A DNA stretch of 64,000 nucleotides, from positions 16,464 through 80,463 of IMG/VR virus record IMGVR_UViG_2881966637_000004, one strand, 5' to 3'. This DNA comes from a virus. Taxonomy: Duplodnaviria > Caudoviricetes. Shown here piece by piece: positions 5,910-63,419 of this stretch. Below the pieces are notes generated by a model. The model saw only the letters and a list, made by a program, of their open reading frames with translations. It did not search any database and was not told where the DNA came from. The position numbers and the translations under genes are program-made. Numbering within the stretch: position 1 is the stretch's first letter; each line of letters starts with the position of its first letter.

Positions 5910-5925
5910 GTCAACTAAAATCAAC
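5910..5925 (+). promoter_or_regulatory. RTCAAC-N4-RTCAAC box (GTCAAC TAAA ATCAAC)
   Basis: Intergenic; followed by TAACTTTCG (5927-5935), a -7-like box, upstream of the cargo gene. Confidence 0.65.
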
Positions 5926-5956
5926 CTAACTTTCGGCTGATAACTCCACACATACA

Positions 5957-8900
5957 ATGGCAACATTCTCCACCTCTACGCCCCTGACAACCTACTGGAC
6001 CCCGCCGACGGTGGCGAAGGGGTGGGATAAGGCCATGCTGGGCCTGACGGGCTACAAGGAAGACGGCACCCAGAACACCTTCGGTAAGATCGGCAGCTGG
6101 ATACCCGGCTTCAACCTGGCCCAGAACGCAGCGGCCCAGAACACGGCCCGTAACGCCGGCCTGACCGACGTGGCCAACACTATCGCCGACGACTTCGACA
6201 ACCGGCTGGGGAAACTCAAGACGGTGGGCGGGGTCGCCCTGGGGGTAGCGGGTGGTGTGACAGGCAACCCCGCCCTGATCCAACGGGGGCTCTCCATGTC
6301 GGCGTCGGGCGTGACGGGTCTGGCAGCCGATCCCGGCCAGACGCCGATGGCGGGGCAGTCGTACCTGCAGGCGTTTGCCGGTGGTGGCGTCTACGGTCCC
6401 GGCAAAGGGGCGACGATGGCTGCCGACCGCACCGCAGTAGCCAGGCCGATGCTGGCTGGCCAGACGACAGGTGGACTGGGCAAGGCGGTCAACAGCGTGA
6501 CCAAACCCGCCGACGAGTTTACCCAGATGTCGCAGGAGATGGTAGCCCGCGACGGCACCGACTACGTGCGCAACTGGGTGCGGCAGTCGGCGGCAATGGG
6601 CCGGGCCGGGCTTCGCCCCGGTGACGCGGTCTACGCCGGGCTGCTTAACACCCCGACGGTGATGAACACCAACGCTGCCTACAACTCAGTCAGTGCCGGC
6701 AACGACTCAGGTGGGCAGTACGACCCCATGACCAAAGAAGCCATCCTTCGACCCAACGCCGATCCGCTGGTTATCCAGTCAGCGGCCACCCATGAGGTTA
6801 CTCACCAGTGGCAGGACATGATGGGAGATCGCAGCCTGTCCGGGCCGGGTCAGCGGTCGGTTACCAATCCTGCCTGGGCGGCTTCGGAGAGTTTGATCCG
6901 CCAGTCGGTTGCCGGCTCCTCGAAGGCCAGCAAAGACCCCTACCTTACCCAGCCGATTGAGGTTCACTCGCGGATCATGGAGATGCGGCAGGCGGCCGAC
7001 CTCAAGCCGGGGCAGGTGGTCACCCCGGAGTTGTACCAGAAAGTAAAGCGGTCGGCCGAGCAGTATGCCCCGAACGCCGTGGGTGGACTGAATCGGGTAC
7101 TGGACGAAAAGCAGATCATTGATCTGATGAATAAGACGGTCAGCAATGACCAGCCCCAGACCGATCCCACACTCTTTGCTGCTGCCGAGGGTGGTGTTTA
7201 TCAGCCGCCGGGAGGCACCCGCCTTCCCACGAGGGATGAGTTGATTCGTATGGGTGTATCTCCACAACAGGCAGATCAGTACCTGGCGGCACGAATAAAC
7301 CAGTCGGCATCGCCACCCGCCCACCGATCCGCCACCAGGCCATCGTCCACCCCGCCCCCTGCGACTACATCCGCGCCACCCCGCCGAACTAACCCGATGC
7401 CGCTAATGGACCTGCCTGACAATGTCGCACGCACGGACACGGACCAAACAGCAACGTCCCGGCCTGTTAGTTTATTCAAGAGACCCAACGAAGGTTATCA
7501 GACCCCCCAGACGTTCTCAAAAGGGGAGCCGGAGCGTCTGTACCAGAAGAATGCCCAAAAAGGGACTGATTATGTACGAAACTGGATACGTCAGTCAGCA
7601 GCTATGGGTCGGGCCGGGCTTCGACCGGAAGACGCGGTTGCTGCCAGCCGGATTGCCAATCCAGTTATCGTCAAGTCGAAGGAAGAGTTTGACCGGATAT
7701 ATGAGGGGAACACAGCAGACGTTGGTGCATTCTACCAATCAAAGGTAGATAGCAGCTTTATTCCCAGCACACAAGGATTTGCTGCCGACACACATGCCGC
7801 GCACGAAGCGACCCATCAATGGCAGCGGGCTATGGGCGACCAAACCATAACCAGACTTGGCGCGGGTCAGGCAATAACACCTGGCTGGGCGGCCTCCGAA
7901 GCATTAATTCGGCAGGCGGTCCATAGCTCGTCAAAGGCGTCCAAAGACGATTACCTCACCAAGCCTGTTGAGGTTCACGCCCGGATCATGCAACTACGCC
8001 GGGCCGGAAACCTCAAGCCGGGACAGGTCGTGACCCCGTCGCTTTATCGACAGCTAGTAAATAAGGTGGTCCCTAGACTGAACGAAGAACTCAATCAGGT
8101 GCTGGATGAAAAGCAGATTATTGACCTGATGAACAAAACCGTAAGCAACGATATGCCCCAGGATCAGACGACCTTCGCTGCCTACAAGGGTGGCGCACTA
8201 CCCGGTATCGGCGGACCCGTTGCCGGTCAAGTTCGACAGTATAGCCCCGGCAGCCGGCAGGAAGACCAGCTCATCGTGGACCAGACGACGGGGCAGGTGA
8301 ACGGACTCATGCGGGCCGGCGAGCTGATCTTCGATCAGAAAGCCAAACAGACCATCGACCGGCTCATCGACGGCGGCACCGCTGCCGAGCTGGGCAACTT
8401 CATCAAAAAGGAACGGGCGACCCATCCCGACCAGACGCAGGCGTTTTGGGAGGGCGGGGTCAGCGAAGACCCGGCCTACTGGACGCGGATGCTCAACCCG
8501 ATATCACCCATCAACATGGCCAAGCCCATCGTTCCCCAGCGGCCGTCTACCCCCTTCACCCCGACCATTAAACCCATTGATCAGGCGCAGAAAGCCATCG
8601 GCTCCCTGTCTACCCAGGCGACGGGATCGGCGGGCGCATCGGCCCCATCCGCGAAGATGGGCGTCGGCGACTGGGCCAGCATCGGCATGGATGCGCTGGG
8701 GGCTATCGGCTCGGCCATTGGGGCTAACCGAAAGCTGCCGACCCAGACGGTCACCCCGGCCTGGCAGAGCTACCTCAACGAAGTGTCGGCCCGCGCCGAT
8801 CAGGGACTGTTGCCGTCGGAGCGGGCAGCGGCCGAGCGGGCCATCGGCTCGGGCTACGACCGGCAGGTGCAGAGCATCGCCGATGTCGTGGGGGGCGGTG

Positions 8901-9301
8901 GCAGCGGAGCGGCCGTGCTGTCGGCTCTGGGTACGGCGGGGCGCAACACGCTGGACGCCGGACTCAACCTCGAACTGGCAGCGGCCGATCGTCGCCGGCA
9001 GAACCTCGGCGTCTACGGACAGGCGGTGGGTCAGCAGATGGCGCAGGACAACCAGAACTATTCGCTGGCCTACAACAACGCCGTTAACAGCCGGGACGCC
9101 TTTACCAAAAGCATGGTCGCCAACCTGCAGCAGATCGGCAACCGATTCAGCTACAACCAGACCTACGGCCCCGGCTCGGCGTTCCAGACCCTGCAGGCCG
9201 AGATGGCGAAGATGGGTCAGGGCTACCAGCAGTCGGCTAACGCGCCCTTCGCCGGCTTCTCCGCGCCGATTGGTATCAACACCAGCTTCGGCAAAAAGTA
9301 A
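5957..9301 (+). CDS. Internal virion/ejection (cargo) protein with two duplicated HExxH zincin-like modules
   Basis: 1114 aa. HEVTH (6791-6805) and HEATH (7802-7816) lie in two ~200-aa homologous units; FAGGG/AEGG/YKGG/WEGG spacer motifs; Gly/Ala-rich helical termini. Confidence 0.65.
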   Translation: MATFSTSTPLTTYWTPPTVAKGWDKAMLGLTGYKEDGTQNTFGKIGSWIPGFNLAQNAAAQNTARNAGLTDVANTIADDFDNRLGKLKTVGGVALGVAGGVTGNPALIQRGLSMSASGVTGLAADPGQTPMAGQSYLQAFAGGGVYGPGKGATMAADRTAVARPMLAGQTTGGLGKAVNSVTKPADEFTQMSQEMVARDGTDYVRNWVRQSAAMGRAGLRPGDAVYAGLLNTPTVMNTNAAYNSVSAGNDSGGQYDPMTKEAILRPNADPLVIQSAATHEVTHQWQDMMGDRSLSGPGQRSVTNPAWAASESLIRQSVAGSSKASKDPYLTQPIEVHSRIMEMRQAADLKPGQVVTPELYQKVKRSAEQYAPNAVGGLNRVLDEKQIIDLMNKTVSNDQPQTDPTLFAAAEGGVYQPPGGTRLPTRDELIRMGVSPQQADQYLAARINQSASPPAHRSATRPSSTPPPATTSAPPRRTNPMPLMDLPDNVARTDTDQTATSRPVSLFKRPNEGYQTPQTFSKGEPERLYQKNAQKGTDYVRNWIRQSAAMGRAGLRPEDAVAASRIANPVIVKSKEEFDRIYEGNTADVGAFYQSKVDSSFIPSTQGFAADTHAAHEATHQWQRAMGDQTITRLGAGQAITPGWAASEALIRQAVHSSSKASKDDYLTKPVEVHARIMQLRRAGNLKPGQVVTPSLYRQLVNKVVPRLNEELNQVLDEKQIIDLMNKTVSNDMPQDQTTFAAYKGGALPGIGGPVAGQVRQYSPGSRQEDQLIVDQTTGQVNGLMRAGELIFDQKAKQTIDRLIDGGTAAELGNFIKKERATHPDQTQAFWEGGVSEDPAYWTRMLNPISPINMAKPIVPQRPSTPFTPTIKPIDQAQKAIGSLSTQATGSAGASAPSAKMGVGDWASIGMDALGAIGSAIGANRKLPTQTVTPAWQSYLNEVSARADQGLLPSERAAAERAIGSGYDRQVQSIADVVGGGGSGAAVLSALGTAGRNTLDAGLNLELAAADRRRQNLGVYGQAVGQQMAQDNQNYSLAYNNAVNSRDAFTKSMVANLQQIGNRFSYNQTYGPGSAFQTLQAEMAKMGQGYQQSANAPFAGFSAPIGINTSFGKK

Positions 9302-9322
9302 TCCACCTACTGATTCACACCG

Positions 9323-10924
9323 ATGACACCCATAACGCCCGGCTTTGCCCCTAACCCCAACTCAGCCCCCTCTCCTACGCTGGCGGCTGCGCTGATGCCG
9401 ACCGAGAATCTGGCCCAGCGCAGGGCGGATCAGCAGGCCGGGCTGTATTTCCAGTCGCAGCTCAACGAGGTGTGGCGGCAGCAGAACGCCGAACGGCAGG
9501 CCGCCATCGTGGACCTGGAAAAGACCAACAACCAGATCGGCAGCATGGGTCTGCTCGGCCCCGACGCCAGCCGGCTCTACAACCAGTTCGCCGAACCCTG
9601 GCGCAGAAAGGTCGAAGACATCATCAAGAACGAATACCAGGGCGACGTGCGTAGGTTCCGGCGCGAGAAGGGCGACTACCTCATGGGCGAGTTCAACACC
9701 ATGCTCACCACCAGCCGGGAGTTGCAGCAGGCCCAGCAGAACAAAACCAACTACGCCCTCTGGCTCAAAGACAAGCAGGATGGCAAGCTGGCCCTGGGCG
9801 ACATGGACACGGCCTTCGCCCAGTTTACCAACGGGGATCGGCCGGACCTGCCCTATGCCGGTGGCTATGAGCCGCCCAAGAATGTCTTCGACCGGATCGC
9901 CAAAGGCACCAAGCCCGGCTACGAGTGGGGGCTGTCGGTCAAGGACGAGCGGGGCAACCACATCGGCTACGCGCCCGTGCCGGCCTCAAGGGAAGACATC
10001 TACCGAGAAGCCCTCAATGACGGGCTCTCTCCCGCCCAAGCCAGCGACTACGTGGACAACAAACTCCGCTATCAGGGCGGGGTGAACTGGGGCATGAAGC
10101 AGCCCGACCCCTACAAGCTCCGTCAGGACGCCATCGAAAACGAGCAGTGGAAGATGAAGTTCAACCAGGCCGAGCGGTTCCAGGCGCAGGACATCGGCGA
10201 ACGCCGGGCCGACCGCGCTGCCCGTGAAAAGGCACGAAAGGAAGAAGCGGCCGCCAAAGCCAAAGTGCCCGGCGCGGGTCTGCCGTCCTACTACGACCGA
10301 CTGTTTTCGACGACGGGCTTCAACGAGCGGTTCCAGGTGCCGGGCCAGTCGGGCCTTTCCTTCCCCCAGCGCAGCGGTATCGTGGCCGGGGAGCGCGACG
10401 CCCTGCTGGCCGCGCTGGGCTACGACGATAAGAACGCCCGCGAGTTGACCAACGCCGACAATCCGGCCATACCACAGGACAAACCCATAAAGGTCAATGC
10501 CGTGACGCCGGGGCAGGTGATGTACCGCGTCGGGGGTGGACAGACGGTGACGGGGCCAGCGGTGATCTCGGCCGACGGCAGCAAGGTCATCCCGATGAAA
10601 GACGGCATCCTGCGCGAAGTGACCGAGATTGATCCCAGCCGCATCATCCAGCTGCCGGCGGCCCGCTTCGGTGGTCCGGCCGGGGTGCCCATCATGGCCG
10701 TCAAGGCGAAGGTCAACCTCAAGGCCGCCGACGGCACAACCAAATTCAATCAGGACGTGTTTATTCCCGTCTCTACCAGCATGAACACCCGAGCGGGCCT
10801 GACCGATCTGACCCCCTTCGGGTCGCCCAACCCCCGCGCTGCGGCCATGCAGCCCACGGGCTACGACGGCCCCGACCAGCCCACCACCCGAACCTACGTC
10901 CAGCAACTCCTTAACGAAGACTGA
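9323..10924 (+). CDS. Putative internal virion/ejection protein
   Basis: 533 aa, strong GC3 bias, helical charged N-half, between two cargo genes. Confidence 0.55.
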   Translation: MTPITPGFAPNPNSAPSPTLAAALMPTENLAQRRADQQAGLYFQSQLNEVWRQQNAERQAAIVDLEKTNNQIGSMGLLGPDASRLYNQFAEPWRRKVEDIIKNEYQGDVRRFRREKGDYLMGEFNTMLTTSRELQQAQQNKTNYALWLKDKQDGKLALGDMDTAFAQFTNGDRPDLPYAGGYEPPKNVFDRIAKGTKPGYEWGLSVKDERGNHIGYAPVPASREDIYREALNDGLSPAQASDYVDNKLRYQGGVNWGMKQPDPYKLRQDAIENEQWKMKFNQAERFQAQDIGERRADRAAREKARKEEAAAKAKVPGAGLPSYYDRLFSTTGFNERFQVPGQSGLSFPQRSGIVAGERDALLAALGYDDKNARELTNADNPAIPQDKPIKVNAVTPGQVMYRVGGGQTVTGPAVISADGSKVIPMKDGILREVTEIDPSRIIQLPAARFGGPAGVPIMAVKAKVNLKAADGTTKFNQDVFIPVSTSMNTRAGLTDLTPFGSPNPRAAAMQPTGYDGPDQPTTRTYVQQLLNED

Positions 10925-13900
10925 TGCAGCCACTACCCCCTTCGCAGTACGGAAAGCCCGCAGCGGCTGCCAGCCCGGCCGACTCGCTGAGCTTCGGCGG
11001 TGATATGCCGCCCGTGCGCAGCAGCCCGCCCGCCTACAAACGCAACGATCCGCTGGTGGCTGGCGTCGCCAAAGCCATTGAGCAAAACGGACTGGGCACC
11101 TACGACCAGGTGATGAACCGCTGGAACAATGCCGTTGCCAAAGGGCCGGACTACGTCGATCAGTTCATGCCCAAGCTCGAAGAGCTGGGCCGCATCGCCG
11201 GCACCGAAATCAACCGGGCGGCCTTTCTGCCGGGTGGGGCCGAGCGGCTGGCCGGCCCTAAGACCGCCCCGCCGTCCGAGCCGGGGCTGGCCGCCACCAC
11301 GCGGGGCGTAGGCAAAGGCCTGTGGAACGGGCTAGTGTCGCTGGCGCAGGGCGTTGTTGAGCTGCCCGAGACGGTACTCGGGGCCGAGCGCGGCATCGAA
11401 GCCGGCATGATGGCCGCCGGTCAGGTGATCAGGGGCGACGTACCCCGCACCGCCGAAGGGTTCGGACAGGCCTTCGACGCGGCCGACCAGCAGATCGGCC
11501 AGTCTTCACTCGGTCTGGGTAAGTCCGACGCGGTGCTGAACCGGTTACGCTCGGTCAGCGAGTTTATCAACAACGGACTCGAACAGGTGAAGTTCGCCGT
11601 CGATCCCAAGACGCTGCTGTCGTATAACGACGGCGTCGAGTGGACAGGTGCGCTGGACGAAGGCACCGGGGCGGCCCTGGGCGAAGGACTCTTCACCGCC
11701 ATCTCGGCAATGGCCCCCGCGCTGGGAGCCGCCAGGATCGGCCAGCTTCCCAAACTCATCCGGGCCGCCGAGCTGGCCGGTGATCTGGCCGAAGCGGGCG
11801 TCCTGACAGCTCGCCTGCGCCAGACGCAGATGGGCCTCTCTACGCTGTCGTCCACCGTTTCGATGGTTCGCCCCATCACCGAAGAAGCCAGGGCTGCTGG
11901 CCTCTCGCCTACCGAGACGAGCCTGTTTGCTGGCCTGCTGGCTCCCGTCATGGGGGTGATGGAAAGCCGGCTCGGCATCGAAAAGAACTTTTTCGCGGGA
12001 GCCGGCCGCAGCATCCGCGACTCGGCCATCAAGGCGGGCCTCGCCGAACTGCGGGCGGGCGTCAGTGAAGCCTCGCTGCGTCAGGCGGCCAAATCCACCA
12101 CCAACGCCCTGATGCGGGGCATCAAGGCGGCCCCGGCCAACATCCTCGAAGGGGTCATCAAAGAAGGGGTCTACGAAGAAGGGCTGCAGTCGGCGGGCGA
12201 AGAGTTCGCCAAGCTGATCTTCAACAACACCGTTGGGGCCAATGCCGCCACGGGCAAGGGGCAGTTCGACCAGTCCATGAACAGCGTGCTCAACAACATC
12301 ATCGGCTCCATGTCGATGGGCGCAGCGGTGGGCGGCTTTCTCAATACGTTCCATAACTCGGGCGCGATGACGCCAACGCTCTTCGGGGCCATCGACCAGC
12401 GCATCCGCGAGGGTCAGGGCGTCGAAGACGTGCAGCAGTGGCTGAGTCCGATGCTGGACGGCCTGGACAGTCAGCCGAACCTATCGCCCCAGGCGCGGCA
12501 AGAGATACGCCAGAACGCGGCCGACCTCATCGACGTGGCCATGCGCTTCTCGCGCCTGCCGAACACGACCGCCTTTCAGCGGTATCAGTATTACGACATC
12601 ACCCGCAATCACATCCCCGAAGTCAGCGGCCGGATCATGGCCGCCGAAGCGGTCGCCAACGAACTACCTGCCCTGCAGGAACAGTACGCAGCGGCCCAGG
12701 GTGACGATAAGATCGACATTGCCGCCCGGATCGCCGAGATCAACGCGGCCCTGCCCGAAGGATACAGCGACAGCGAACGGGCCAAAGATGACCGCCGGAT
12801 GCGCTTTCTCACCGATCAGGTGGACGGACTGCTGACGGGCCGCCAGGCCACAGCCGTCTCGGAAGGGCTGGGCCATATCGACCGGCTGGACGTGGGGATG
12901 CTGGCCAGCGGACAGGGCGAGAACGGGCCCGTGTCCGGCTCTATCGTAGACATCTCCGCCGACGGTCAGCGGGTCACCATCAGCCAGCCGACCGAAGATG
13001 GTCAGCCGGACGTACCCGTCACCCTGCCCGCCGGTAAAGTCGTTGTGCGCAACGAAGCCGACATGGCTCCCCCATCGGTCAGCGTCGCCAATCCGCGCAC
13101 CGTCGCCGAGGAGCCCGGCTTTGTCACCGCCGAGATCAAACCGCTGTCGGCTTACCAGCCCGGCGAGTTCGTCCGGCTGTCGGGCATCGCCGACCCTATC
13201 CGCGTGGACGCCGTCAGCAGCGAGGACGGTCAGGTGCCGACGATCACCCTGGCGATGCCGGGTGAGGGCGGGGTTACGTCCCAGACCTACGACATGGAGC
13301 AGCTACTGAGCGACGCCGACAACGGCTTTATCGGCGGCTACGATCCCGAGCTGGCTCTGCAGCAGGAAGCCAACGCCCGGCGCGAGGCCCAGACCAACCA
13401 GCTTCGCGCCAGGCTGGAAGCCAAACTCAGCCCGACGACGGTAGCCGCCATCAACGCCCTGCCGGACGCGGCCCTGCTGGGTCGGCGCGACGGCTTCAAG
13501 GGGCGTACCGTGGCCGCCGACGAGCGGCCCCTGCGCGACTACATCAACTTCATCGCCGATCAGCGCGGCCTGACCGCTGCCCCCGCCAATGAAACAAACC
13601 CGACCAGTCCCTCACCCACGCCCGATTCGCCCCAGCCCGTATCCACGGCGGCCGATCCCCAGTCTATCCTGGAAAACGGGCCGGTAGCCTACGACCCCGA
13701 GAACGGCATCGTCCTGATCAACGGCCTGCCCTATACGCTGCCCGAGGGGCAGGTGCTGGCCGACGCCTTCGCCTACGACAAGAACGGCAAACTCTTCGGC
13801 GTGAAGCTGGTGGACAGCAAAGGTGTCGAGCGGACCATCCGCAAGGGCGATGTGCTTTCTGCCTTGCAGGTGCTCGATCTGCAGGCGCAGATGAGTGCGC

Positions 13901-16900
13901 TGCCGGGGCCGGTGGTTGGTCAGGCCATCGAAGAAGCCATCGCCGACACCCAGGCCGAAGCCGCCGAGTCGGCCACCGACCCCGACGCGCTGACGCCCGT
14001 AGGCCAGCAGCGCATGAACCAGGCTGTCGCCCTGTTCGACGCGGTCTATTCGTCGGATACGGTAGCGCAGATCGTGCAGGCGCAGGGTGAAGGCTTTACC
14101 GCCGATGAGATCGGCGCGGCCAGCTCGGTCGTGCAGTCGGTAGCGGCTCAGCTCGAAGCCATGCGCCCAGGCGACGGCCTGATCGCATCCGACGCCGAGG
14201 TGCTGGGTCGCTATATTGACGAAAATATACCCGGCTTGTACCAGGTAAACGAAGTGCTTACCACGCTTTATGAATTAGCCCAAACCAACAATGGAGAGTC
14301 CACAACCCCGGCCGGAAACCCCGCCGACAATACAGACCAGCCCGGTGCAGTGGCAGAACCCGGCCAGGGCCAAAGCGATCCGCTCCCTGCCGATGCAGGC
14401 GTTGCTGTTCAACCTGAACCGGCAGCTGCACCGCCTGCCGCCGACCCAACGCCAGCAGGTGCTGAGCCGGCTGTCGCAGTCGCTGGCAACGATCAGCCCG
14501 ATGGTAGCGTTGCGGACGGAGCAGTTGCAGAACCAGGTGCGCCAGCAAATCCAGACGGCGGTACGGCTCCCGTTGGGAATCCGGACGCGCTGAACCAGCC
14601 CGTCTCCGACAGCGACTACCGCGCCTTCCGGCAAGACCCGTCGGGTTTCCTGCTCACGCCCGAACTGGCGCAGGGCATCGCCGACCGCATCCGCGAAGGC
14701 CGCTCCGACACCCGCGATCAGGTGATCTACCAGAACCGCCGGGCCGAGATTGACCCCCTCATCGCCCGTGGCCGGGGGCTGACGACGACTCCGGCTACTC
14801 CCCCGTCCGGCATGGCTGACATCAACCTGGACGGCATGGACGCTACCGATCTCGAACTGGCCGCTGCCGAAAGCGGACGAGCAGCCACGCCCCTGTCCGT
14901 GAGGTCTTCGACCGTGGAAGCTGCGGTGGGCATGGATGTGCAGGTGGGCCGCACCAACCCCTTCGAGGCCAAGATCATTGGCTTCACCGAAGACGGGCAG
15001 GTGGTGGTGAACCGCGACCGACTGGGTAAGAAAGGTAAGTTCACCTACCCCCTCGACGCCGTGCGGGACGGGCGGGGCGTTCGCTCCCTGACGCTGCCGG
15101 CCAACATCCACGAAGCCAACGCAGCCGCCGTGGCCGCTCCATCTACCCCCTCGGTGGGTGAACCCGTCGCGGCCCAAAACGTTGCCGTCGAAGGCTACTA
15201 CAAAAACTATACGCTGCCGGGAGCCGGCAAGAAAGGTTACCTCGTCCGCGTGGCGGCCCTGAACACCACCGCCGACGGCAAGGTCATTGCCGACGTGTAC
15301 GTCGTGGCTACCAAAGAACGCCGGTCGATCCTGGCCAGCAAGCTCATGGAAGCCAGCGAGGCCGAGCAGAACCAGGCGAAGGCACTGGTGGACAAAGCCA
15401 TTCCCAAGCGGCTGCCGACGATCCGGGAGCAGCGGGTGCCCGACGGACGAACGCTGACATCTGACCCCATCGGCCGGGCCCGGCTTGAAGCGATGGCCAG
15501 CCGGCTCGGCAACGCCTTTCCGAGGGTGCGGGTCGAGATACTGTCCAACGAGGCCATGACCGAAGGCTTCGGCGAGGGGTTACTGGGCAGCGTTCGGGAC
15601 GGGGTCGTCTACCTCAACGCCGACTACGCCACCGCCGACGCGCCCATCCACGAATTTGGCCACGTCTACACCACCCTGGCCAAAGCCGAGATGCCCGACC
15701 TCTACCAGTCGGGTCTGGACCTGGTGCGGGGCAGCGAGTACGAAAGCCGGGTGCGGGATACCTACGCCGGCCGGGGGCTCAGCGATGAGCAGCTACTCGA
15801 AGAAGCCCTGGTTACCGCCATCGGCGAACGCGGGGCCGCCATGACCCGGCCCACTATCGCTAAGCGGTTCGCCACCTGGCTGCGGGTGATGATGAAGCGG
15901 ATCGGCGCGAAGCTGGGCCTGACCCTTTCGCCCGAGACGACCCTGGACGCCTTCGCCGACGCCCGTGCCGAAGAACTCCTCGCCGGACTACCCCTCTCGC
16001 TGGCGACCAGTGAGCAGATCGGCGACCTGTCGGCGCAGCTGGACATGGCCCCCGACCGGGCCCGGCTGCACACGGGCCCACTGCCGGCGGTGATCGACAA
16101 CAACTGGCTGGCCCAGCACACACTCAGTAAAGACCAGCAGGATCAGCTGCTGCAGTACGGCTGGGCGTCGCCCGACCCCGATACCGGGGAGATGGTGCGC
16201 GTCGCGCCCGACCTGGCCGCCCAGCAGGCCGACGTGGATACGGCCCGCCAACTCTACAAAGGCAAGCTGTATGCCGCCCTGCGCACCGCAGCCTACACGA
16301 TGGACATCCGCAACCTCGCCCGGCTGGTGTACGGCGAGGGTAGCAAAACGGCCAAGAACCTGATCGGCCTGCTGGATGCGTCGCGCAACCGCACGGCGGG
16401 TCTGCAGGTCATCAAGCACGACGCCCTCAACGCCCTCTACGAAACCGGCCGGGGGCTGACGACGCACCGCTCCCTGACGGCGGTAGAAGATGTGCCCCGA
16501 TTCTCCACCACCGCCGTCGTCAACGGACAGGCGGGCAGTATCGACATTCCGGTGGACCGGGTGCTGACCATCGTGGCCCAGCACAAGACCATCATGGCCA
16601 ACACCAACGGCGGCAGGAAACTGGTGAACGGGGTAGAGACGCGCATTACCCCACCCGTCTTCGAGATGATCTCGCCCGACGACGACACGCAGACGCTCAG
16701 CGTTGCGCTGAGTCTGGACGAGCTGCGCGACCTGGAAGCCCGCGTCGATGCCGACCCCACCCTGACGCAGATGCTGGACACCTGGCGGACGATGCGCGAC
16801 GGCTTCGCCCCGGTGGTGGCCGACACCTACCAGACCTCGACGGGCGGCAGCCTGCGGCTCTACAACGAATACTTCCCCCTGCGCACCATCCGCGACGAGA

Positions 16901-18561
16901 AAGAAATCAACCGGCGCAGTGTCAGCCAGACCGTTGAGGATGTTGGTCTGCTGCAAAGCCGCACGGGTATTCCGTCCCGGCTGATCGTAGAGCCCTTTAC
17001 GGCGGTGGTGGAACGCTACGCTAGGCAGGCCGAAAGCTACGTGCAGTACCAGCCGGTGTACGCCGAGATGGAGCGGCTGCACGTAGCCCAGGCCAACGGC
17101 TATACCGGCAACCAGAAAAACTACTGGAAGTCGGTAGGGCTCGGCGGTACGGGCGGGCCGGAGTCGGCCTGGCTGACGGCGATGGACCGGCTGGGCAAAC
17201 CCCATGTCAGCCGCAACCAGTACGCGGTTTCTATAATGGGACTGAGTGTGGGAAATCTAATGAAGAGAGCGACCATTAGTCGGTTTGCTACTAACTTTTC
17301 AGTAGGTCTCAAACAGACCACTGGCTATATTGCAGCCTTTGGATCAGGTTTCATTGACAGTAAATACTTATGGACCGAGATGCCCCACTACGGCAAGATG
17401 ATCGGCGAGAGCTACGTACTCATCGGGCGGGGCGGCAAACCCGAGTGGTATAACGGCAGCCCGACCGACTTTGATCTGGCCGAGCAGGAGCTGCGTCAGG
17501 TCGCCCAGCTACCGGGCGGGGAAGCTGCCAACGTCCTGCTGTGGCGTCTGCTGGGCGAAGCCACGCCGGATGTTGACTTTGACACATGGCAACAGTATAG
17601 TCAAAATCCGACCCGAACCAAGCGGATTGGTCAGAAAATGAGGGGCTTTATTGAAGAGTATGGATTGTCTGCCATTCAGCGGGCGGACAAGGCCGTCGTG
17701 GCCTCTTTTTACCGGGCGGCACTGGCCCAGGCGCAGGACACCATGCCGACGGCTTCGCCCGAGGAGCATCGGCTGGACGCGGCCCGCCGGGCGGTGGGGG
17801 CTCTCTACTACTCCAACCAGACCTACGATCAGACCGACCGGGCGGCCATCCAGATGATTGACAACCCGGTGGCTAGAATGATGAATATGTATCGGGGGCA
17901 GGCTGCCAAGATTTCCAACACCACTTACCAGCGTATTCTGGAAGCCGGCGCGGCTACCGACCCTACCCTCAAGGCGCAAGCCAGGGGTAGATTAGCCCTT
18001 CAACTGGGCTTGAACGCGGTCATTATTCCTGCCATTACCGCAGCCATCAATGCGCTGGCAAAGTACGTCAGAAACTTATTGGCCGACGATGAAGAAAAGC
18101 GGAAAACAGAAACGGACGAATATTTCTGGGATGTGGCGTCACAGACGCTGTCCACGTACCTGCCGCCCATTGCCAATGAGCTTGTTGGTGGGGCAATTGC
18201 CACCCTGCAAGACAAGCCGTGGGCGGATGAGATGTTTACGGAGACCGGCCTCAATGGCGTTGGTAAGTTCTTTTTCCATGCCGTGTCCCTGATTCGATTT
18301 GTGGGGCCGTTCGGTGAGTTTAAAAATGAAGCCGACTACGAAAAGCAACTCAACAAAGAAATACAGAGTCTGCTCCGTTCGGGAGCGGAGGTGGGCGGCA
18401 TTCCTCAAGAAGTTATTAGGCAGATTAATATTCAGATCAACAACCAACTACCGCAGAAGGCGATAAGAAAAGAGCCGACTAGCTACACTGGGTTTGAAGT
18501 AATCAGTGGCGACGCCCCGACGGGTGGAGACCAGAAACGCATTCGCTCATCTCCCTACTAA
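10924..18561 (+). CDS. Giant virion ejection (polyvalent-type) protein with a zincin-like HEFGH domain
   Basis: 2545 aa. VYLNADYATADAPIHEFGHVY (HExxH at 15649-15663) followed by EEALV resembles the metallopeptidase domains of phage polyvalent proteins; Pro/Ala linkers separate domains. Confidence 0.7.
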   Translation: MQPLPPSQYGKPAAAASPADSLSFGGDMPPVRSSPPAYKRNDPLVAGVAKAIEQNGLGTYDQVMNRWNNAVAKGPDYVDQFMPKLEELGRIAGTEINRAAFLPGGAERLAGPKTAPPSEPGLAATTRGVGKGLWNGLVSLAQGVVELPETVLGAERGIEAGMMAAGQVIRGDVPRTAEGFGQAFDAADQQIGQSSLGLGKSDAVLNRLRSVSEFINNGLEQVKFAVDPKTLLSYNDGVEWTGALDEGTGAALGEGLFTAISAMAPALGAARIGQLPKLIRAAELAGDLAEAGVLTARLRQTQMGLSTLSSTVSMVRPITEEARAAGLSPTETSLFAGLLAPVMGVMESRLGIEKNFFAGAGRSIRDSAIKAGLAELRAGVSEASLRQAAKSTTNALMRGIKAAPANILEGVIKEGVYEEGLQSAGEEFAKLIFNNTVGANAATGKGQFDQSMNSVLNNIIGSMSMGAAVGGFLNTFHNSGAMTPTLFGAIDQRIREGQGVEDVQQWLSPMLDGLDSQPNLSPQARQEIRQNAADLIDVAMRFSRLPNTTAFQRYQYYDITRNHIPEVSGRIMAAEAVANELPALQEQYAAAQGDDKIDIAARIAEINAALPEGYSDSERAKDDRRMRFLTDQVDGLLTGRQATAVSEGLGHIDRLDVGMLASGQGENGPVSGSIVDISADGQRVTISQPTEDGQPDVPVTLPAGKVVVRNEADMAPPSVSVANPRTVAEEPGFVTAEIKPLSAYQPGEFVRLSGIADPIRVDAVSSEDGQVPTITLAMPGEGGVTSQTYDMEQLLSDADNGFIGGYDPELALQQEANARREAQTNQLRARLEAKLSPTTVAAINALPDAALLGRRDGFKGRTVAADERPLRDYINFIADQRGLTAAPANETNPTSPSPTPDSPQPVSTAADPQSILENGPVAYDPENGIVLINGLPYTLPEGQVLADAFAYDKNGKLFGVKLVDSKGVERTIRKGDVLSALQVLDLQAQMSALPGPVVGQAIEEAIADTQAEAAESATDPDALTPVGQQRMNQAVALFDAVYSSDTVAQIVQAQGEGFTADEIGAASSVVQSVAAQLEAMRPGDGLIASDAEVLGRYIDENIPGLYQVNEVLTTLYELAQTNNGESTTPAGNPADNTDQPGAVAEPGQGQSDPLPADAGVAVQPEPAAAPPAADPTPAGAEPAVAVAGNDQPDGSVADGAVAEPGAPANPDGGTAPVGNPDALNQPVSDSDYRAFRQDPSGFLLTPELAQGIADRIREGRSDTRDQVIYQNRRAEIDPLIARGRGLTTTPATPPSGMADINLDGMDATDLELAAAESGRAATPLSVRSSTVEAAVGMDVQVGRTNPFEAKIIGFTEDGQVVVNRDRLGKKGKFTYPLDAVRDGRGVRSLTLPANIHEANAAAVAAPSTPSVGEPVAAQNVAVEGYYKNYTLPGAGKKGYLVRVAALNTTADGKVIADVYVVATKERRSILASKLMEASEAEQNQAKALVDKAIPKRLPTIREQRVPDGRTLTSDPIGRARLEAMASRLGNAFPRVRVEILSNEAMTEGFGEGLLGSVRDGVVYLNADYATADAPIHEFGHVYTTLAKAEMPDLYQSGLDLVRGSEYESRVRDTYAGRGLSDEQLLEEALVTAIGERGAAMTRPTIAKRFATWLRVMMKRIGAKLGLTLSPETTLDAFADARAEELLAGLPLSLATSEQIGDLSAQLDMAPDRARLHTGPLPAVIDNNWLAQHTLSKDQQDQLLQYGWASPDPDTGEMVRVAPDLAAQQADVDTARQLYKGKLYAALRTAAYTMDIRNLARLVYGEGSKTAKNLIGLLDASRNRTAGLQVIKHDALNALYETGRGLTTHRSLTAVEDVPRFSTTAVVNGQAGSIDIPVDRVLTIVAQHKTIMANTNGGRKLVNGVETRITPPVFEMISPDDDTQTLSVALSLDELRDLEARVDADPTLTQMLDTWRTMRDGFAPVVADTYQTSTGGSLRLYNEYFPLRTIRDEKEINRRSVSQTVEDVGLLQSRTGIPSRLIVEPFTAVVERYARQAESYVQYQPVYAEMERLHVAQANGYTGNQKNYWKSVGLGGTGGPESAWLTAMDRLGKPHVSRNQYAVSIMGLSVGNLMKRATISRFATNFSVGLKQTTGYIAAFGSGFIDSKYLWTEMPHYGKMIGESYVLIGRGGKPEWYNGSPTDFDLAEQELRQVAQLPGGEAANVLLWRLLGEATPDVDFDTWQQYSQNPTRTKRIGQKMRGFIEEYGLSAIQRADKAVVASFYRAALAQAQDTMPTASPEEHRLDAARRAVGALYYSNQTYDQTDRAAIQMIDNPVARMMNMYRGQAAKISNTTYQRILEAGAATDPTLKAQARGRLALQLGLNAVIIPAITAAINALAKYVRNLLADDEEKRKTETDEYFWDVASQTLSTYLPPIANELVGGAIATLQDKPWADEMFTETGLNGVGKFFFHAVSLIRFVGPFGEFKNEADYEKQLNKEIQSLLRSGAEVGGIPQEVIRQINIQINNQLPQKAIRKEPTSYTGFEVISGDAPTGGDQKRIRSSPY

Positions 18562-18623
18562 GGGTAGTATTCATAGCGGAGTGGCTTTTGGTGTGCGTTG
18601 CATCACTAAACGCCCCTTTACGT

Positions 18624-18995
18624 ATGTTGCAGGCTTGGTTTTTATTTGGAATCCTGTCCTTTTCGGTAGCAACGGCTTACCTATGGCAAGAGGGAGAGTT
18701 CAAAAAAATGAATCTATTTGATTTTTTTGACTACTCGTTTCCAGCAATTATGTACGGTCCAATTGGCTTTATTTATTTGCTGTATCAAATGCCAACGCCA
18801 TACAACAAATACAAGAAGTATGGTGCAATGCTGGTAATTGTTTCCTTTCTATTTATTTCGGTAACTGAGGGAACGAAGGAGTTTATCGGCTGCGTGTGTA
18901 AAGATGGATGGAGAAGTCCCTCCACGGGGCGAGGCACTTGCTCTTGGCACGGAGGGATTGACTACTACGATTACAAGTACTGGTGGGATAAATAA
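18624..18995 (+). CDS. Membrane protein with C-terminal DUF3761-like CxDGxxS...GTCSxHGG motif
   Basis: CVCKDGWRSPSTGRGTCSWHGGID preceded by 2-3 hydrophobic segments; AT-rich; start codon uncertain (18588, 18624 or 18708). Confidence 0.6.
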   Translation: MLQAWFLFGILSFSVATAYLWQEGEFKKMNLFDFFDYSFPAIMYGPIGFIYLLYQMPTPYNKYKKYGAMLVIVSFLFISVTEGTKEFIGCVCKDGWRSPSTGRGTCSWHGGIDYYDYKYWWDK

Positions 18996-19002
18996 GAGTC
19001 TT

Positions 19003-19416
19003 TTAGTCCTCAATGCGCTTCTCACGGTACTCAATGTATAGATCACCACCCAGCGCATTGAATAGATCACCCAGCGTCTTCAACCCCAACTTGCGCCTAC
19101 CCTGTTCAATGTTGCCAATGACGGGAGCCGGATAGCCGATGGCCTCCCCTAGTTCGGCCTGAGTCATACCTCGAAGCTTCCTAAGGGATGTGATCAGCTC
19201 CGGCATGGCGTCAGGTGTATTAGATAGCCGCAGCCCACCACCCGGCAGCAACTCACCCGGTATGTTGATCTCCTCTACTTCAAAGGCCGGCGTATCTACA
19301 TTGTCGTTACTGGCTTCGCTTGACCAGCCCGGCCCACCCGACTGCATCCGGTCGGCTAAAGTGCTACCCTCGTCTATCGGGTCATCAATATCTTGTTCTT
19401 CGTTTGGCTCATTCAT
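19003..19416 (-). CDS. XRE/Cro-C1 family HTH regulator with acidic N-terminus
   Basis: LRKLRGMTQAELGEAIGYPAPVIGNIEQGRRKLGLKTL is a canonical HTH_3 pattern. Confidence 0.8.
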   Translation of the reverse strand: MNEPNEEQDIDDPIDEGSTLADRMQSGGPGWSSEASNDNVDTPAFEVEEINIPGELLPGGGLRLSNTPDAMPELITSLRKLRGMTQAELGEAIGYPAPVIGNIEQGRRKLGLKTLGDLFNALGGDLYIEYREKRIED

Positions 19417-19439
19417 ACGCTAGTACGTCTTTTCTGTAT

Positions 19440-19741: not shown

Positions 19742-19767
19742 GTCAACTAATATCAATTTAAATCAAC
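19742..19767 (+). promoter_or_regulatory. Triple box GTCAAC TAAT ATCAAT TTAA ATCAAC
   Basis: Three units at 10-bp period in the divergent intergenic region. Confidence 0.6.
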
Positions 19768-48566: not shown

Positions 48567-48587
48567 TCAGTATCAAATATACTCGTT

Positions 48588-53359: not shown

Positions 53360-53650
53360 TTAAAGGATGGTGATGCGCAGCTTGTTGTGAGGCAGCTTGC
53401 TGTAGGCGATGTGAGACGCTTTCGTCAGGTAGTCCAGGGTAAGGGTCATCTCGTCGGCAGATCGCAAGCCAGCGACAACTCGTAGCTCCATGCTGTCCAC
53501 ATCAAAGGTGGAGCCCACCTCGCGGATGACGAAGTACAACAGGGCCGAGTACGTCGCCATGTGCAGCGAGGTGGCATCCGGTCTTCCAGCGTTGGCAATG
53601 ACGAACCGGCTCAGCTTATCCGGAAGGTTGACTTTAGTTGACGTAGCCAT
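53360..53650 (-). CDS. Hypothetical protein (possible wHTH)
   Basis: 96 aa preceding the initiator. Confidence 0.55.
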   Translation of the reverse strand: MATSTKVNLPDKLSRFVIANAGRPDATSLHMATYSALLYFVIREVGSTFDVDSMELRVVAGLRSADEMTLTLDYLTKASHIAYSKLPHNKLRITIL

Positions 53651-55306: not shown

Positions 55307-55322
55307 GTTGATAAAAGTTGAC
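55307..55322 (-). promoter_or_regulatory. Box GTCAAC TTTT ATCAAC
   Basis: In the Rha leader. Confidence 0.6.
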
Positions 55323-55428: not shown

Positions 55429-55465
55429 CGAAAAGATAGTTCCAAACTAGTTGACAAAAGTTTAC
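55429..55465 (-). promoter_or_regulatory. Box GTAAAC TTTT GTCAAC plus TATCTTTTCG -7-like element (Rha leader promoter)
   Basis: Box at 55450-55465; -7-like element at 55429-55438 on the minus strand. Confidence 0.6.
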
Positions 55466-58142: not shown

Positions 58143-58465
58143 GGGGTGACGCTGTCTAAGATGCTGTTGATGGTACGCAGGGATTCTAATGGCAACTGAT
58201 TGGTCCGGCCCCGTTGAGTGGCTTTGTTTGCAATGGCCGAGGTCAATGTGTTTCTCTCTGCCTCATCGTAGTAGGCCTGCTCCGTGGTGTAGATGCGGTA
58301 CGTGGCCGAGTACTTGGTGACCTGATACAGTGTGTCGATGTAAAACTTGACCAGCCGACTGCCGATGGTCAGCGTGATATACTTGGGGCCGACGTTGTCA
58401 ATGGGGATGGCCTTGAGTCCGTCCTTGACAATGCCCGATACAAATACGATGTCTCCCTTTTTCAT
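58139..58465 (-). CDS. Hypothetical protein
   Basis: 108 aa, ATGA-coupled. Confidence 0.55.
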   Translation of the reverse strand: MKKGDIVFVSGIVKDGLKAIPIDNVGPKYITLTIGSRLVKFYIDTLYQVTKYSATYRIYTTEQAYYDEAERNTLTSAIANKATQRGRTNQLPLESLRTINSILDSVTP

Positions 58466-58962
58466 TTTGGTTGTTGTTTGGCGTGTTCTTCTTTGAGTAC
58501 GACTACTTCGCGCACGGTGCCGCCGGCATTGATCTTATCAACCATCTTGTCCAGCAGCGGCATGGCCCAGTTTGGAATGTATTTGTCTTTGGTTTCTATG
58601 AATACTTTCGGAAAGTCATAGAGGCCACGACCCAGCCCGAACTGCACGGCGCATCGCTTCATGGCATCGCTGATACCACCCTTGATGGGCTCGATCCCGG
58701 TGCGGCTGGCACCATCCGTCTTGCGGACGATCTCGCCACCATCCAGCACGACGCTGATGGTACACAGGAAGCCCCCGTCTACCTCTTTGATTTCATTGTG
58801 CCAGCGTTCCCATCCGAACTGATCATCGAAGCGTTGCATCACACATCGGTTCGTGATGTAAGGGACGACGATAATCTTCTGGGCATCTTTGGTCTGGCTC
58901 TGCACCCGCCATTCAATTTCTGTTGACGTGATCGGTGCTGACAATACATTTAGTTCTTTCAT
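58462..58962 (-). CDS. Rad52/Rad22-family single-strand annealing protein
   Basis: IEWRVQ...VPYITNRCVMQRFDDQFG...KGGISDAMKRCAVQFGLGRGLY. Confidence 0.88.
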   Translation of the reverse strand: MKELNVLSAPITSTEIEWRVQSQTKDAQKIIVVPYITNRCVMQRFDDQFGWERWHNEIKEVDGGFLCTISVVLDGGEIVRKTDGASRTGIEPIKGGISDAMKRCAVQFGLGRGLYDFPKVFIETKDKYIPNWAMPLLDKMVDKINAGGTVREVVVLKEEHAKQQPK

Positions 58963-60149: not shown

Positions 60150-60165
60150 GTTGATATAGGTTGAC
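60150..60165 (-). promoter_or_regulatory. Box GTCAAC CTAT ATCAAC
   Basis: Fills the gap between the stop at 60165 and the ATG at 60145. Confidence 0.65.
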
Positions 60166-60779
60166 TACATCTCAATAAGATCGCCGATACTTCTGGGCTC
60201 CCCGTACTGCTGGGTCAGCCGCTGCAGGTACGCCACGTAGTAGTCGGCGTCGATCTGCTCGTCGTCCAGCCACCGGCTACCCAGACTAAGCAGCCGCTGC
60301 ATCTGCAGACTACAGCGCAGCAGGTCACCGTGCAGGGGCGCATCATCCTGATCCAGCCAGTTGGATACCGCTGCCGTGTAGTTATGTTGGGCCACCTGAA
60401 TCATGGCGCACAGCCGGCGGGTGCGCTCCATCCAGACTCGGTACGCTTTCTGCTGACAATCAATGAAGTGGATCGTGAAGCCCAACTGATCGCAGGTGTT
60501 GACCTTGCCGGCGTCACCCATCAGCAGCAGACAGCAGATGCCATCGGGATGGGTCAGGTGGATCAGGGCGTTCATGCAGTCGATAGCCGTCATGGACGCA
60601 TCCATGTAGCGGGGCGTGTCGGCGAAGTCTACGATAGCCGTCAGGAGTGGGTCGTCGGCCATATGCAGATCACCGTAGAGGGTTTCGGTCTGCTGCCACA
60701 GGGCTGTGGCCAGGGCGTAGGCAGGGGCAGGCCAGGCAGACGGGCTTCCGTAAGAGAGGGTTGCCAAAAGTTGACGCAT
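60165..60779 (-). CDS. Hypothetical protein
   Basis: 204 aa, in operon. Confidence 0.55.
   Translation of the reverse strand: MRQLLATLSYGSPSAWPAPAYALATALWQQTETLYGDLHMADDPLLTAIVDFADTPRYMDASMTAIDCMNALIHLTHPDGICCLLLMGDAGKVNTCDQLGFTIHFIDCQQKAYRVWMERTRRLCAMIQVAQHNYTAAVSNWLDQDDAPLHGDLLRCSLQMQRLLSLGSRWLDDEQIDADYYVAYLQRLTQQYGEPRSIGDLIEM
60760..60775 (-). promoter_or_regulatory. Degenerate box GTCAAC TTTT GGCAAC
   Basis: In the first codons of 60165-60779. Confidence 0.5.
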
Positions 60780-62465: not shown

Positions 62466-62481
62466 GTTGATTTAAGTTGAC
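62466..62481 (-). promoter_or_regulatory. Box GTCAAC TTAA ATCAAC
   Basis: Intergenic; identical to 47570-47585. Confidence 0.65.
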
Positions 62482-62483
62482 GA

Positions 62484-62768: not shown

Positions 62769-63045
62769 GGCACACGGGTAGGATGCCCTGGCTGGCAGCC
62801 AGCTGACCAATGACAGCGAATATCTCAATGTGGACCTGGCTGATGAGGTCAGCGACGTGGTCCATCTCCCGCAGCAGCTCGGCGTGGTAGGCGGGATCGT
62901 GAAGGTTCTTCTCGGCGGTGCATAGCAGCTCCCGCTGGTAGGCCTGCAGGGCCAGTAAGACCAGCTCAGTCTGGCTGCTGGTGGCCGGGCCACGGACAAT
63001 GGAAAGCGATAGGTTGATGGATGGAAACGGGTTTGTGGCGTTCAT
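62755..63045 (-). CDS. Hypothetical protein
   Basis: 96 aa downstream of cro. Confidence 0.5.
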   Translation of the reverse strand: MNATNPFPSINLSLSIVRGPATSSQTELVLLALQAYQRELLCTAEKNLHDPAYHAELLREMDHVADLISQVHIEIFAVIGQLAASQGILPVCHEQQ

Positions 63046-63056
63046 AGAGTACAGGA

Positions 63057-63329
63057 TTATAGGTTGACAGAAGTTGACTGCGGACTTATTTTTTTTAGCC
63101 GTGAGAGTCTAAGCGAAACCTCGTTGGCTTCTACTGTCTCTAATAGGAGAAGACCGTCATATATTTTTTTAACGGTGTCGTCTTTCGCCGGCTCACCATT
63201 TAAGGTGCGATGGATGGTTTTTCTGGTGACTTTTCCCAGCCGGGACACGCCAGTAATACCCCGTCTGGTCTTGCCCAGACGCACCTTGAGCCGGTCAATC
63301 TCCTCGGCGGGTAGGGGGATGCCTTTCAT
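63057..63329 (-). CDS. Cro-like regulator
   Basis: GITGVSRLGKVTRKTIHRTLNG HTH-like; divergent from the repressor. Confidence 0.65.
   Translation of the reverse strand: MKGIPLPAEEIDRLKVRLGKTRRGITGVSRLGKVTRKTIHRTLNGEPAKDDTVKKIYDGLLLLETVEANEVSLRLSRLKKISPQSTSVNL
63063..63078 (-). promoter_or_regulatory. Box GTCAAC TTCT GTCAAC
   Basis: In the last codons of the cro-like gene. Confidence 0.6.
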
Positions 63330-63375
63330 ATATTCTGGATTGGTGTTTACTTTGCCGCTTACTCAAACGGATACT

Positions 63376-63419
63376 CAAATGTAACATTTAATTATTACAT
63401 TGTGTCAACTGCTGTCAAC
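63376..63419. promoter_or_regulatory. Lysis-lysogeny switch region
   Basis: Minus-strand TACATTTG -7 box (63376-83); inverted repeat AATGTAA-N10-TTACATT (63378-63401); box GTCAAC TGCT GTCAAC (63404-63419). Confidence 0.7.

Follow-up and report, generated by a model that had tools for sequence, protein, structure and literature searches.

In phage P1, a single repressor, C1, controls many scattered operons, among them that of the lytic replication gene repL, through asymmetric operators. Lambda Xis (sites X1-X1.5-X2), P2 Cox, and 186 Apl follow another design, in which small monomers line up head-to-tail on direct repeats spaced by about one helical turn and variable in number. Oriented, genome-wide arrays of repressor sites are also established in other phages (PMC9283540, PMC10516654). 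In Cluster A mycobacteriophages, asymmetric 13-bp sites number more than 20; they occur at promoters as well as in short gaps between genes, and their orientation is tied to transcription (PMC9283540). Repressors of these phages include L5 gp71, Bxb1 gp69, and the TipsytheTRex repressor (PMC9283540, PMC6550527). In SPbeta, a conserved 15-bp element (SPBRE), present in many intergenic and promoter regions of this large prophage, was predicted in silico decades before chromatin affinity purification sequencing (ChAP-seq) identified it as the site of the master repressor MrpR (YopR) (PMC10516654). Finally, the crAss-like phage phi14:2 and its relatives carry a tripartite middle/late motif with -35-like and -10-like blocks, which is used by the host polymerase and is intergenic and almost always in sense orientation (bioRxiv 10.1101/2020.03.07.982082). 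Here, we describe a direct repeat, RTCAAC-N4-RTCAAC (GTCAACTTTTGTCAAC as double-stranded DNA), that recurs with the polarity of the genes at gene junctions throughout a crAss-like prophage, of which we analyzed a stretch of 64,000 nucleotides (IMG/VR record IMGVR_UViG_2881966637_000004, positions 16,464 to 80,463; hereafter, the window).

The window corresponds to C21:402414-466413 of a 7.37-Mb genome. A 15-bp attachment (att) core, GCAGAGAGGAAGAGA, is located at window positions -16598 to -16584 and again at 64091-64105, where it forms the 3' end of a tRNA-Ser; two tRNA-Ser genes lie directly to the right of the window. The att cores and the tRNA-Ser copy therefore delimit an integrated crAss-like prophage of 80,704 bp (window -16598 to 64105; L001:3402 to L002:105, where coordinates prefixed L001 lie to the left of the window), which begins 16.6 kb before the left end of the window. 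Adjoining attL, 15-16 kb left of the window (L001:3538-4794), is the gene for a tyrosine integrase that has an arm-binding domain; judged by this integrase, the att core, and the tRNA-Ser, the phage is temperate. Judged by its muzzle protein (PF25731, E 1.5e-214) and by its major capsid protein, which matches Crass_capsid, the phage is crAss-like; a block of giant cargo genes is also present in the window, and in circular form the genes constitute two divergent arms. The nearest relative resides in Spirosoma oryzae DSM 28354, which is listed in the same genus as the genome studied here, and the host is therefore a Spirosoma. Integrated crAss-like phages outside gut Bacteroidales seem to have been described only rarely.

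Exact copies of RTCAAC-N4-RTCAAC number 14 in the window, against 0.03 expected from dinucleotide shuffles, and 22 copies are found when up to one mismatch is allowed (0.88 expected). Of the 21 exact copies in the 7.37-Mb genome, 17 are located in the prophage (C21:388669-465817) and only 4 in the remaining 7.29 Mb, while copies with up to one mismatch number 34 in the 80.7-kb prophage and 101 in the other 7.29 Mb; the word is thus enriched over both shuffled DNA and the host chromosome. In intergenic DNA extended by 10 nt into the genes (7.1 kb), there are 26 copies, against 0.13 in shuffles. Twelve copies lie to the left of the window in the same prophage (L001:5568-16381), so that the network of about 18 sites that an earlier note had picked out from the letters of the window is in fact larger, with ∼30 copies across the whole prophage (28 to 34 over 78 kb of its 80.7 kb, from L001:5568 to window position 63419). 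The leftmost copy is 2.1 kb inside attL, the rightmost is 0.7 kb inside attR, and none is less than 600 bp from an att core. Because 17 of the 21 exact copies are confined between the att cores, a host factor is unlikely to be the reader of the word.

The spacing of the two hexamers is as strict as had been proposed: 17 same-strand hexamer pairs are exactly 10 bp apart, with at most 2 at every other spacing from 6 to 30 bp. When the 28 junction copies were aligned, both units read R-T-C-A-A-C, followed by a pyrimidine or at least a non-A base, and the remainder of the spacer was almost purely A/T, which gives a repeating unit of RTCAACY plus three A/T bases. In the same alignment, no flank was conserved at -30 to -1 or at +17 to +60, where the information content was at background. 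The word has no self-complementarity, and the copy at 19742 has three units in phase. Our reading is that such a site would be the signature of tandem protein binding, with two or three identical heads placed on one face of the helix. Three copies that the earlier note had not listed lie deep in coding DNA (40063, 27520, and 52711); they have G/C-containing spacers (GGGC, CAAC, and CCAA, respectively) and are probably chance or secondary occurrences. Other explanations of the word itself were set aside: a two-block promoter, given the unconserved flanks around the 16 bp; a mobile element or chance, given the enrichment statistics together with these flanks; and a HincII-type restriction site (GTCAAC fits GTYRAC, and the phage encodes a methylase), because the ATCAAC units, the phasing, and the position at junctions would be left unexplained.

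The copies concentrate at gene junctions, as the earlier note had observed. According to a crude gene call, by which ∼7% of the prophage is intergenic, 26 of the 34 copies with at most one mismatch are either intergenic (17) or overlap a gene end (9), and 4 more lie within 11 nt of a gene end. In 17 of 27 copies, a long open reading frame (ORF) has a stop codon that begins between -8 and +7 nt relative to the first base of the site; in 6 copies the G of a TAG stop is the first base of the word, and in 3 a TAA lies inside the spacer. The distance to the next start codon varies from 3 to 96 nt, with 7 copies ending 3-9 nt ahead of an ATG. Orientation is far from random, since 28 of the 29 copies outside divergent gaps point in the direction of the genes (binomial ∼6e-8). 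The claim that the motif switches strand wherever the genes do is less strong than it first seems: the apparent local switches (63404, L001:12368, L001:16278, and 19742) are all located in divergent gaps, where a copy points at one neighbor whichever way it lies; orientation by transcription and orientation by genome arm are therefore not fully separable. A copy is present at every position that had been listed for the window, as follows (exact unless a mismatch is stated).

5910-5925, plus strand: tandem site GTCAACTAAAATCAAC, 2 nt after the stop of the muzzle gene and 1 nt before a TAACTTTC box
19742-19767, plus strand: triple hexamer GTCAAC-TAAT-ATCAAT-TTAA-ATCAAC (one-mismatch pairs from 19742 and 19752, three hexamers in phase); the minus-strand HTH_17 gene starts 20 nt away, and late promoter 1 lies downstream
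25429-25444, plus strand: tandem site filling the 18-nt gap between two structural genes; its G ends a TAG, and an ATG follows 3 nt on
33785-33800, plus strand: tandem site with a stop 5 nt before it and a TATCTTTC box 5 nt after it
36445-36460, plus strand: tandem site that overlaps a TAG stop; the late-promoter-2 palindrome TTGACAG-G5-CTGTCAA lies 6 nt downstream
39184-39199, plus strand: tandem site that overlaps the major capsid gene at its TAG stop; an inverted GTTGAC and a hairpin come next
45665-45680, minus strand: tandem site with a TAA stop 2 nt ahead of it and, 4 nt beyond it, a terminator-like structure (GC-rich hairpin and T run)
46420-46435, minus strand: tandem site with one mismatch, intergenic
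47570-47585, minus strand: tandem site whose spacer contains the TAA of the upstream gene; an ATG lies 9 nt downstream
48551-48566, minus strand: tandem site with one mismatch; it begins 7 nt past a TATATTTG box (48574-48581), which places it near +1 of a host-type promoter
53627-53642, minus strand: tandem site within the overlap of two early genes
55307-55322, minus strand: tandem site in the long leader of a Rha-family gene
55450-55465, minus strand: tandem site with one mismatch; a stop precedes it by 3 nt, and a TATCTTTT box follows after 11 nt
60150-60165, minus strand: tandem site overlapping a TAG stop; an ATG lies 4 nt downstream
60760-60775, minus strand: tandem site with one mismatch, immediately downstream of a DNA methylase gene
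62466-62481, minus strand: tandem site preceded by a TAA at 2 nt and followed by an ATG at 7 nt
63063-63078, minus strand: tandem site where the first leftward early ORF ends; an ATG lies 17 nt on
63404-63419, plus strand: tandem site of the immunity interval; the repressor ATG follows after 17 nt, and on the other strand the site is 20 nt upstream of a leftward TACATTTG box (63376-63383)

The intergenic DNA contains 14 matches to TAnnTTT[G/C], which we take to be the Bacteroidota -7 consensus; these boxes are consensus matches only. About eight copies of the word lie beside such boxes (for example, 5910, 33785, 55450, and 63404), in agreement with the adjacency already remarked upon. The copies at 5910 and 33785 are 1 and 5 nt upstream of TAnCTTTC boxes, respectively; the copy at 63404, taken on the complementary strand, is at about the -33 region of the leftward early box TACATTTG; L001:12368 directly follows a TATTTTTG box, at about +1, upstream of a RepL-family gene; and L001:16278 covers the -33 region of a rightward box while also lying in the leader of a leftward gene that has a box of its own. 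Both strong late promoters likewise have a copy upstream, at differing distances.

19829-19876, plus strand: late promoter 1, composed of the palindrome TTGACAGGGGGGCTGTCAA, 22 nt (20 nt from the GTCAAC hexamer), and TAGTTTTG
36467-36515, plus strand: late promoter 2, composed of the palindrome TTGACAGGGGGGCTGTCAA, 23 nt (21 nt from the GTCAAC hexamer), and TACTTTTG

Such variable geometry around the boxes would be expected of a repressor, and not of an activator or a core promoter element. The palindrome of the two late promoters is identical (19829-19847 and 36467-36485) and presents GTCAAC 20-21 nt before the perfect TAnnTTTG boxes of two structural operons, which is where a -33 element would sit. 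Another element, the near-palindrome AAATGTAACATTT followed by TTACATT (63377-63400), belongs to the immunity interval, is unique in the prophage, extends over the leftward early -7 box, and adjoins the tandem site; it may be a second operator, for a Cro-like protein.

The nearest relative, the prophage of S. oryzae DSM 28354 (hereafter, the sister; capsid 46% identical), occupies contig C25 of genome G089 from ∼21.5 kb to the contig end and continues on C6:1-15 kb. This prophage and a Runella metagenome-assembled contig were found by a family-level genome search and an alignment-based search; megablast of 12 kb against the phage collection returned no close relatives, and single-protein locus searches with the capsid returned no relative. 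The same motif does not recur in these relatives: RTCAAC-N4-RTCAAC is at background level in both, the Runella contig (12.6 kb) being too short for any word to show. Instead, the sister has an oriented 20-bp word of its own, CTAATCAATTnTATWWAnCA (CTAATCAATTTTATTAAACA). Its core, CTAATCAATW, has 27 of its 44 genomic copies in the sister phage, whereas the reversed control pattern gave 8, and 30 of the 32 exact TAATCAAT copies in the sister are co-oriented with the genes. Among these 32 copies, the TAA of the word is the stop of a long ORF in 12; moreover, the word has a conserved C-A at +17/+18, and in 9 copies an ATG is positioned exactly at +18, with the conserved A as its first base. Some sister copies are in tandem at 12-13 bp. 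As in the window, copies precede both late promoters (which in the sister have a G-run) and follow a shared 290-aa gene, and both words have a TCAAY core and a T-rich spacer. Judging from these two genomes, the lineage has kept the design of the network and rewritten its word, which again points to a reader encoded by the phage. The G-run element of the sister, GCACCGGGGGGGTGGTGAC, stands at the same two late promoters and is unlike the palindrome found here.

Among the described systems, the operator/stoperator array of the Cluster A mycobacteriophages and SPBRE/MrpR come closest to this locus. The Cluster A array has in common with it a short asymmetric site that is present in more than 20 copies throughout a temperate genome, that is found both at promoters and in tiny gaps between genes, where stops and starts are overlapped, that tracks transcription in its orientation, and that has diverged in related phages. 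Unlike in Cluster A, however, the host belongs to the Bacteroidota and the phage is a crAss-like podovirus of an unrelated lineage, and the nonrepetitive 13-bp word is replaced by a 16-bp direct repeat with a 10-bp period and sometimes three units. This phased design differs from both the mycobacteriophage and the SPbeta sites and predicts another mode of binding. A search of the PDB with the repressor-like protein encoded at 63437 found no homologue of the gp71-type repressor, which combines a helix-turn-helix (HTH) domain with a Stoperator domain; because the protein here has two XRE-type HTH domains, the relationship to Cluster A is one of analogy at most, not membership. SPBRE resembles the present word in its spread over many intergenic and promoter regions of a large prophage, but is unrelated to it in sequence and architecture, and its reader has the fold of a catalytically dead tyrosine recombinase, whereas the only recombinase-fold protein recognized here, among the ORFs with a family match, is the integrase next to attL. 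The likeness to P1 is seen at its repL operon, since here, too, a RepL-family gene is preceded by a promoter box that has a site at about +1; in contrast, P1 operators overlap promoters and are not phased direct repeats, while most copies here have no recognizable promoter alongside, and no C1 homologue was seen. The sites of Xis, Cox, and Apl are likewise direct repeats about one helical turn apart and variable in number, as are the 17 pairs with a 10-bp period and the triple site in the present phage, and an HTH_17 gene starts 20 nt from this triple site; those sites, however, cluster at attP or at the lysis-lysogeny switch, whereas in the prophage no copy comes closer to the att cores than 0.7 kb on one side and 2.1 kb on the other, and the array extends over 78 kb. 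Unlike the phi14:2 motif, the word has nothing conserved outside its 16 bp, and the host-type boxes are separate from it. Promoter sets of phage polymerases would be expected to keep a fixed relation between word and start, in contrast to the 3 to 96 nt found here; the sister conforms in part (ATG at +18 in 9/32). By homology, then, the system is not a member of the Cluster A, SPbeta, or P1 systems as far as its encoded proteins reveal. The precedents first put forward, P1 C1 and Xis, are apt in part, and the Cluster A array and SPBRE/MrpR fit better than either alone. A limited literature search returned no account of oriented arrays of regulator sites in phages of the crAss-like group.

We therefore consider, with moderate confidence, that the word constitutes an array of oriented sites for a phage-encoded DNA-binding regulator, which would bind head-to-tail and whose sites would act as operators and as polar blocks. 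In this mechanism, two protomers or domains (three at 19742) would read the same 7-bp unit RTCAACY in head-to-tail arrangement, on one face of the helix and across the A/T spacer, and one sequence-specific protein would occupy ∼30 such sites over the whole integrated phage. Sites next to promoters (the leftward early promoter, the promoter upstream of RepL, the 48574 promoter, and the boxes at 5927 and 33806) would serve as operators. Most sites, however, fill tiny gaps between co-directional genes at stop codons, and there the bound protein might stop or gate an RNA polymerase arriving from upstream, in the polar manner of a stoperator. The likely purpose would be silencing of the 80-kb prophage or timing of its operons. 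Also in favor of this mechanism, the phage encodes a repressor-like protein with tandem HTH domains, and one of the sites precedes the ATG of this protein by 17 nt. A phage-wide network of the kind suggested by the earlier note stands as the best-supported reading; the sites, their phasing, their confinement to the prophage, their place at junctions, their orientation, and the parallel network of the sister are observed, whereas we infer the binding of a protein, its effect on transcription, and the identity of the reader.

Three proteins were of concern as potential readers or partners.

63437-64000, plus strand: candidate reader and candidate immunity repressor (187 aa); XRE-type HTH domains span residues 44-97 and 126-180, and there is no peptidase domain
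19440-19721, minus strand: 93-aa HTH_17 protein (excisionase/MerR-like winged helix); candidate reader
19003-19416, minus strand: 137-aa XRE HTH protein, in one unit with the HTH_17 gene

Other recognized DNA-binding proteins are a Rha-family protein, an HTH_36 replication protein, RepL, and the integrase; the remaining small ORFs gave no family match, about half of all small ORFs being without any. In functional terms, the 63437 protein would fit best, because its gene is of the immunity type, adjoins attR, and has a site in the divergent promoter gap. The third helices of this protein have the segments SVDVIRQSER and TKQAISKIER, which differ at what are presumably the positions that contact bases in 434-type repressors. 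By its mode of binding, the HTH_17 protein would fit best, given the head-to-tail assembly of Xis, Cox, and Apl; yet a lytic-phase factor that blocks the operons of its own phage would make less sense. These two are the candidate readers. No near homologues of the 187-aa protein were found, a full HMMER scan returning only generic multi-HTH proteins; the PDB search returned generic XRE domains only, and not the TipsytheTRex repressor; and a single-sequence AlphaFold model of it was too poor for use (mean predicted local distance difference test score of 46.7). A 168-aa protein shared with the sister was considered as a hidden regulator and rejected, as it is the RepL-family replication protein. 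The HTH_17 gene itself is part of a low-GC (0.49) minus-strand unit (18588-19721) that breaks the GC-rich late region and consists of a Cys-rich, membrane-like ORF, the XRE protein (with an acidic N terminus), and the HTH_17 protein; the sister has unrelated genes at this position.

Several observations weigh against a head-to-tail regulator of this kind. A tandem-HTH monomer such as the 63437 protein would be an awkward reader, because its two third helices differ while the half-sites are identical and one site has three units. The repressor of the sister is of a nonhomologous HTH-S24 type, encoded beside its integrase and provided with private GTACTCTTTT repeats, and classical repressors may therefore use other operators in both phages (GTACTCTTTT repeats in the sister and AAATGTAACATTT here). 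No repressor-type or HTH candidate has a homologue common to the two phages, the sister lacking a counterpart of the 187-aa protein, and RepL is the only one of their common proteins recognized as DNA-binding; against this set of shared proteins, the TCAAY core of both words hints at a homologous reader. Further, a roadblock at 45665 would be redundant, since that site stands directly before a terminator-like hairpin, and the 9 of 32 sister words with an ATG at +18 fit a start-linked signal better. The GTACTCTTTT repeats of the sister, three direct copies with a 10-bp period (L018:12019-12052, on G089 C6), are located between its HTH-S24 repressor gene and the leftward operon and occur in tandem form nowhere else in the sister phage; they are likely its classical operators.

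An array of this kind would matter beyond the present phage, in that crAss-like phages are among the most abundant known, their gene regulation is almost unexplored, and most of the studied members cannot lysogenize; the prophage described here is integrated at a clean att site and possesses both an immunity region and an array of oriented sites along its whole genome. As its sister resides in a culture-collection strain (S. oryzae DSM 28354), the pair is experimentally tractable and represents a natural swap experiment, which bears on how one small protein might gate ∼30 gene junctions and on whether stoperator-type silencing arose independently in Bacteroidota.

We consider it unlikely that the word is instead a compact promoter or initiation word, the reader being either a specificity factor of the phage that acts on the host polymerase or a polymerase of the phage itself (the 2545-aa crAss-type cargo protein, for instance). 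Short-leader or leaderless mRNAs would then be predicted, as from the dispersed T7-like and phiKZ/AR9-like promoters. A word that is private to the phage, co-oriented, and placed at junctions, and that is replaced by another word in a related phage, would suit such a promoter, as T7, T3, and SP6 each have their own promoter word; furthermore, the C-A at +17/+18 of the sister word resembles the pyrimidine/purine start of a leaderless mRNA (the A being that of an ATG in 9/32), and 7 of the copies here end 3-9 nt before an ATG. Dispersed, sense-oriented intergenic promoter motifs are, moreover, known in crAss-like phages (bioRxiv 10.1101/2020.03.07.982082). However, an internal direct repeat with a triple variant is unlike polymerase promoters, and the distance to the start codon ranges from 3 to 96 nt while the upstream stop is hugged (17/27). 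Neither the terminator-like hairpin 4 nt after the copy at 45665 nor the several copies located downstream of, or upon, host-type TAnnTTTG boxes would be expected of a promoter. In addition, no polymerase was recognized, the 2545-aa protein having no Pfam match, PDB relative, or conserved DFDxD motif, and an induced prophage would have no virion polymerase at hand. On the lack of any such signature (Pfam, PDB, DFDxD), a recognizable virion polymerase was set aside as the reader; a diverged polymerase may nonetheless be encoded. The gene for the cargo protein (window 10924-18561) occupies the locus at which crAss phages have their virion RNA polymerase, and a sister protein of 2392 aa is 34% identical, with no DFDxD motif common to both. 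It would be quite a long shot for the words to be promoters of an unrecognized transcription machinery of the crAss lineage, for instance with the 2545-aa protein as a highly diverged virion-type polymerase and an own word in each phage, the sister starting leaderless mRNAs at the C-A of +17/+18; if true, this would provide the first promoter consensus for a crAss-type polymerase, and in a temperate member.

It is decidedly unlikely that the word acts in mRNA, as an intercistronic signal for an RNA-binding protein or nuclease of the phage, with a role in processing, in 3'-end protection, or in coupling translational termination to reinitiation in a host without Shine-Dalgarno pairing. The strict placement on the sense strand would agree with this, as would the ties to stop codons (TAG overlap in 6 copies and TAA in the spacer in 3; in the sister, TAA stop in 12/32 and ATG at +18 in 9/32), and the phage encodes a ProQ C-terminal-like protein. 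Three copies (the triple copy at 19742, 63404, and L001:12368) are nevertheless located in divergent promoter gaps, where sense read-through is neither expected nor needed, and the 10-bp phasing with its A/T spacer suits B-DNA, whereas a reader of RNA needs no helical-turn period. The word matches no Rfam family and shows no self-complementarity; furthermore, since the two phages use different words in the same host genus, a host ribosome or RNase cannot be the reader. Very improbable, finally, is another polar DNA signal that follows the genome arms (a nick site, a packaging or translocase-orienting signal, a replication polarity signal, or a boundary of cassette recombination), for which the two divergent arms followed by the sites, with local switches only in divergent gaps, and the encoded HNH endonuclease and Rad52-type annealing protein would speak, but which would have no reason to avoid coding DNA or to favor stop codons and promoter boxes, the unconserved flanks also indicating that the word is not part of a mobile element.

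Some further features of the two phages were noted. The RepL-family protein (L001:12465-12971; window -7535 to -7029) is 36% identical to that of the sister, and its gene is situated behind a 750-bp AT-rich gap with two TAnnTTTG boxes, possibly the region of the lytic origin. Elsewhere in the same genome, a second, weak crAss-type capsid match (G000:C1:112334-113548; 25% identity, E 1.4e-5) may represent another, distant crAss-like element. Genome-wide identity between the two phages is 25-50%, whereas the N-terminal 66 residues of their Rad52/22-family annealing proteins (window 58462-58962 and G089 C25:23324-23671) are 86% identical, which suggests a recent exchange.

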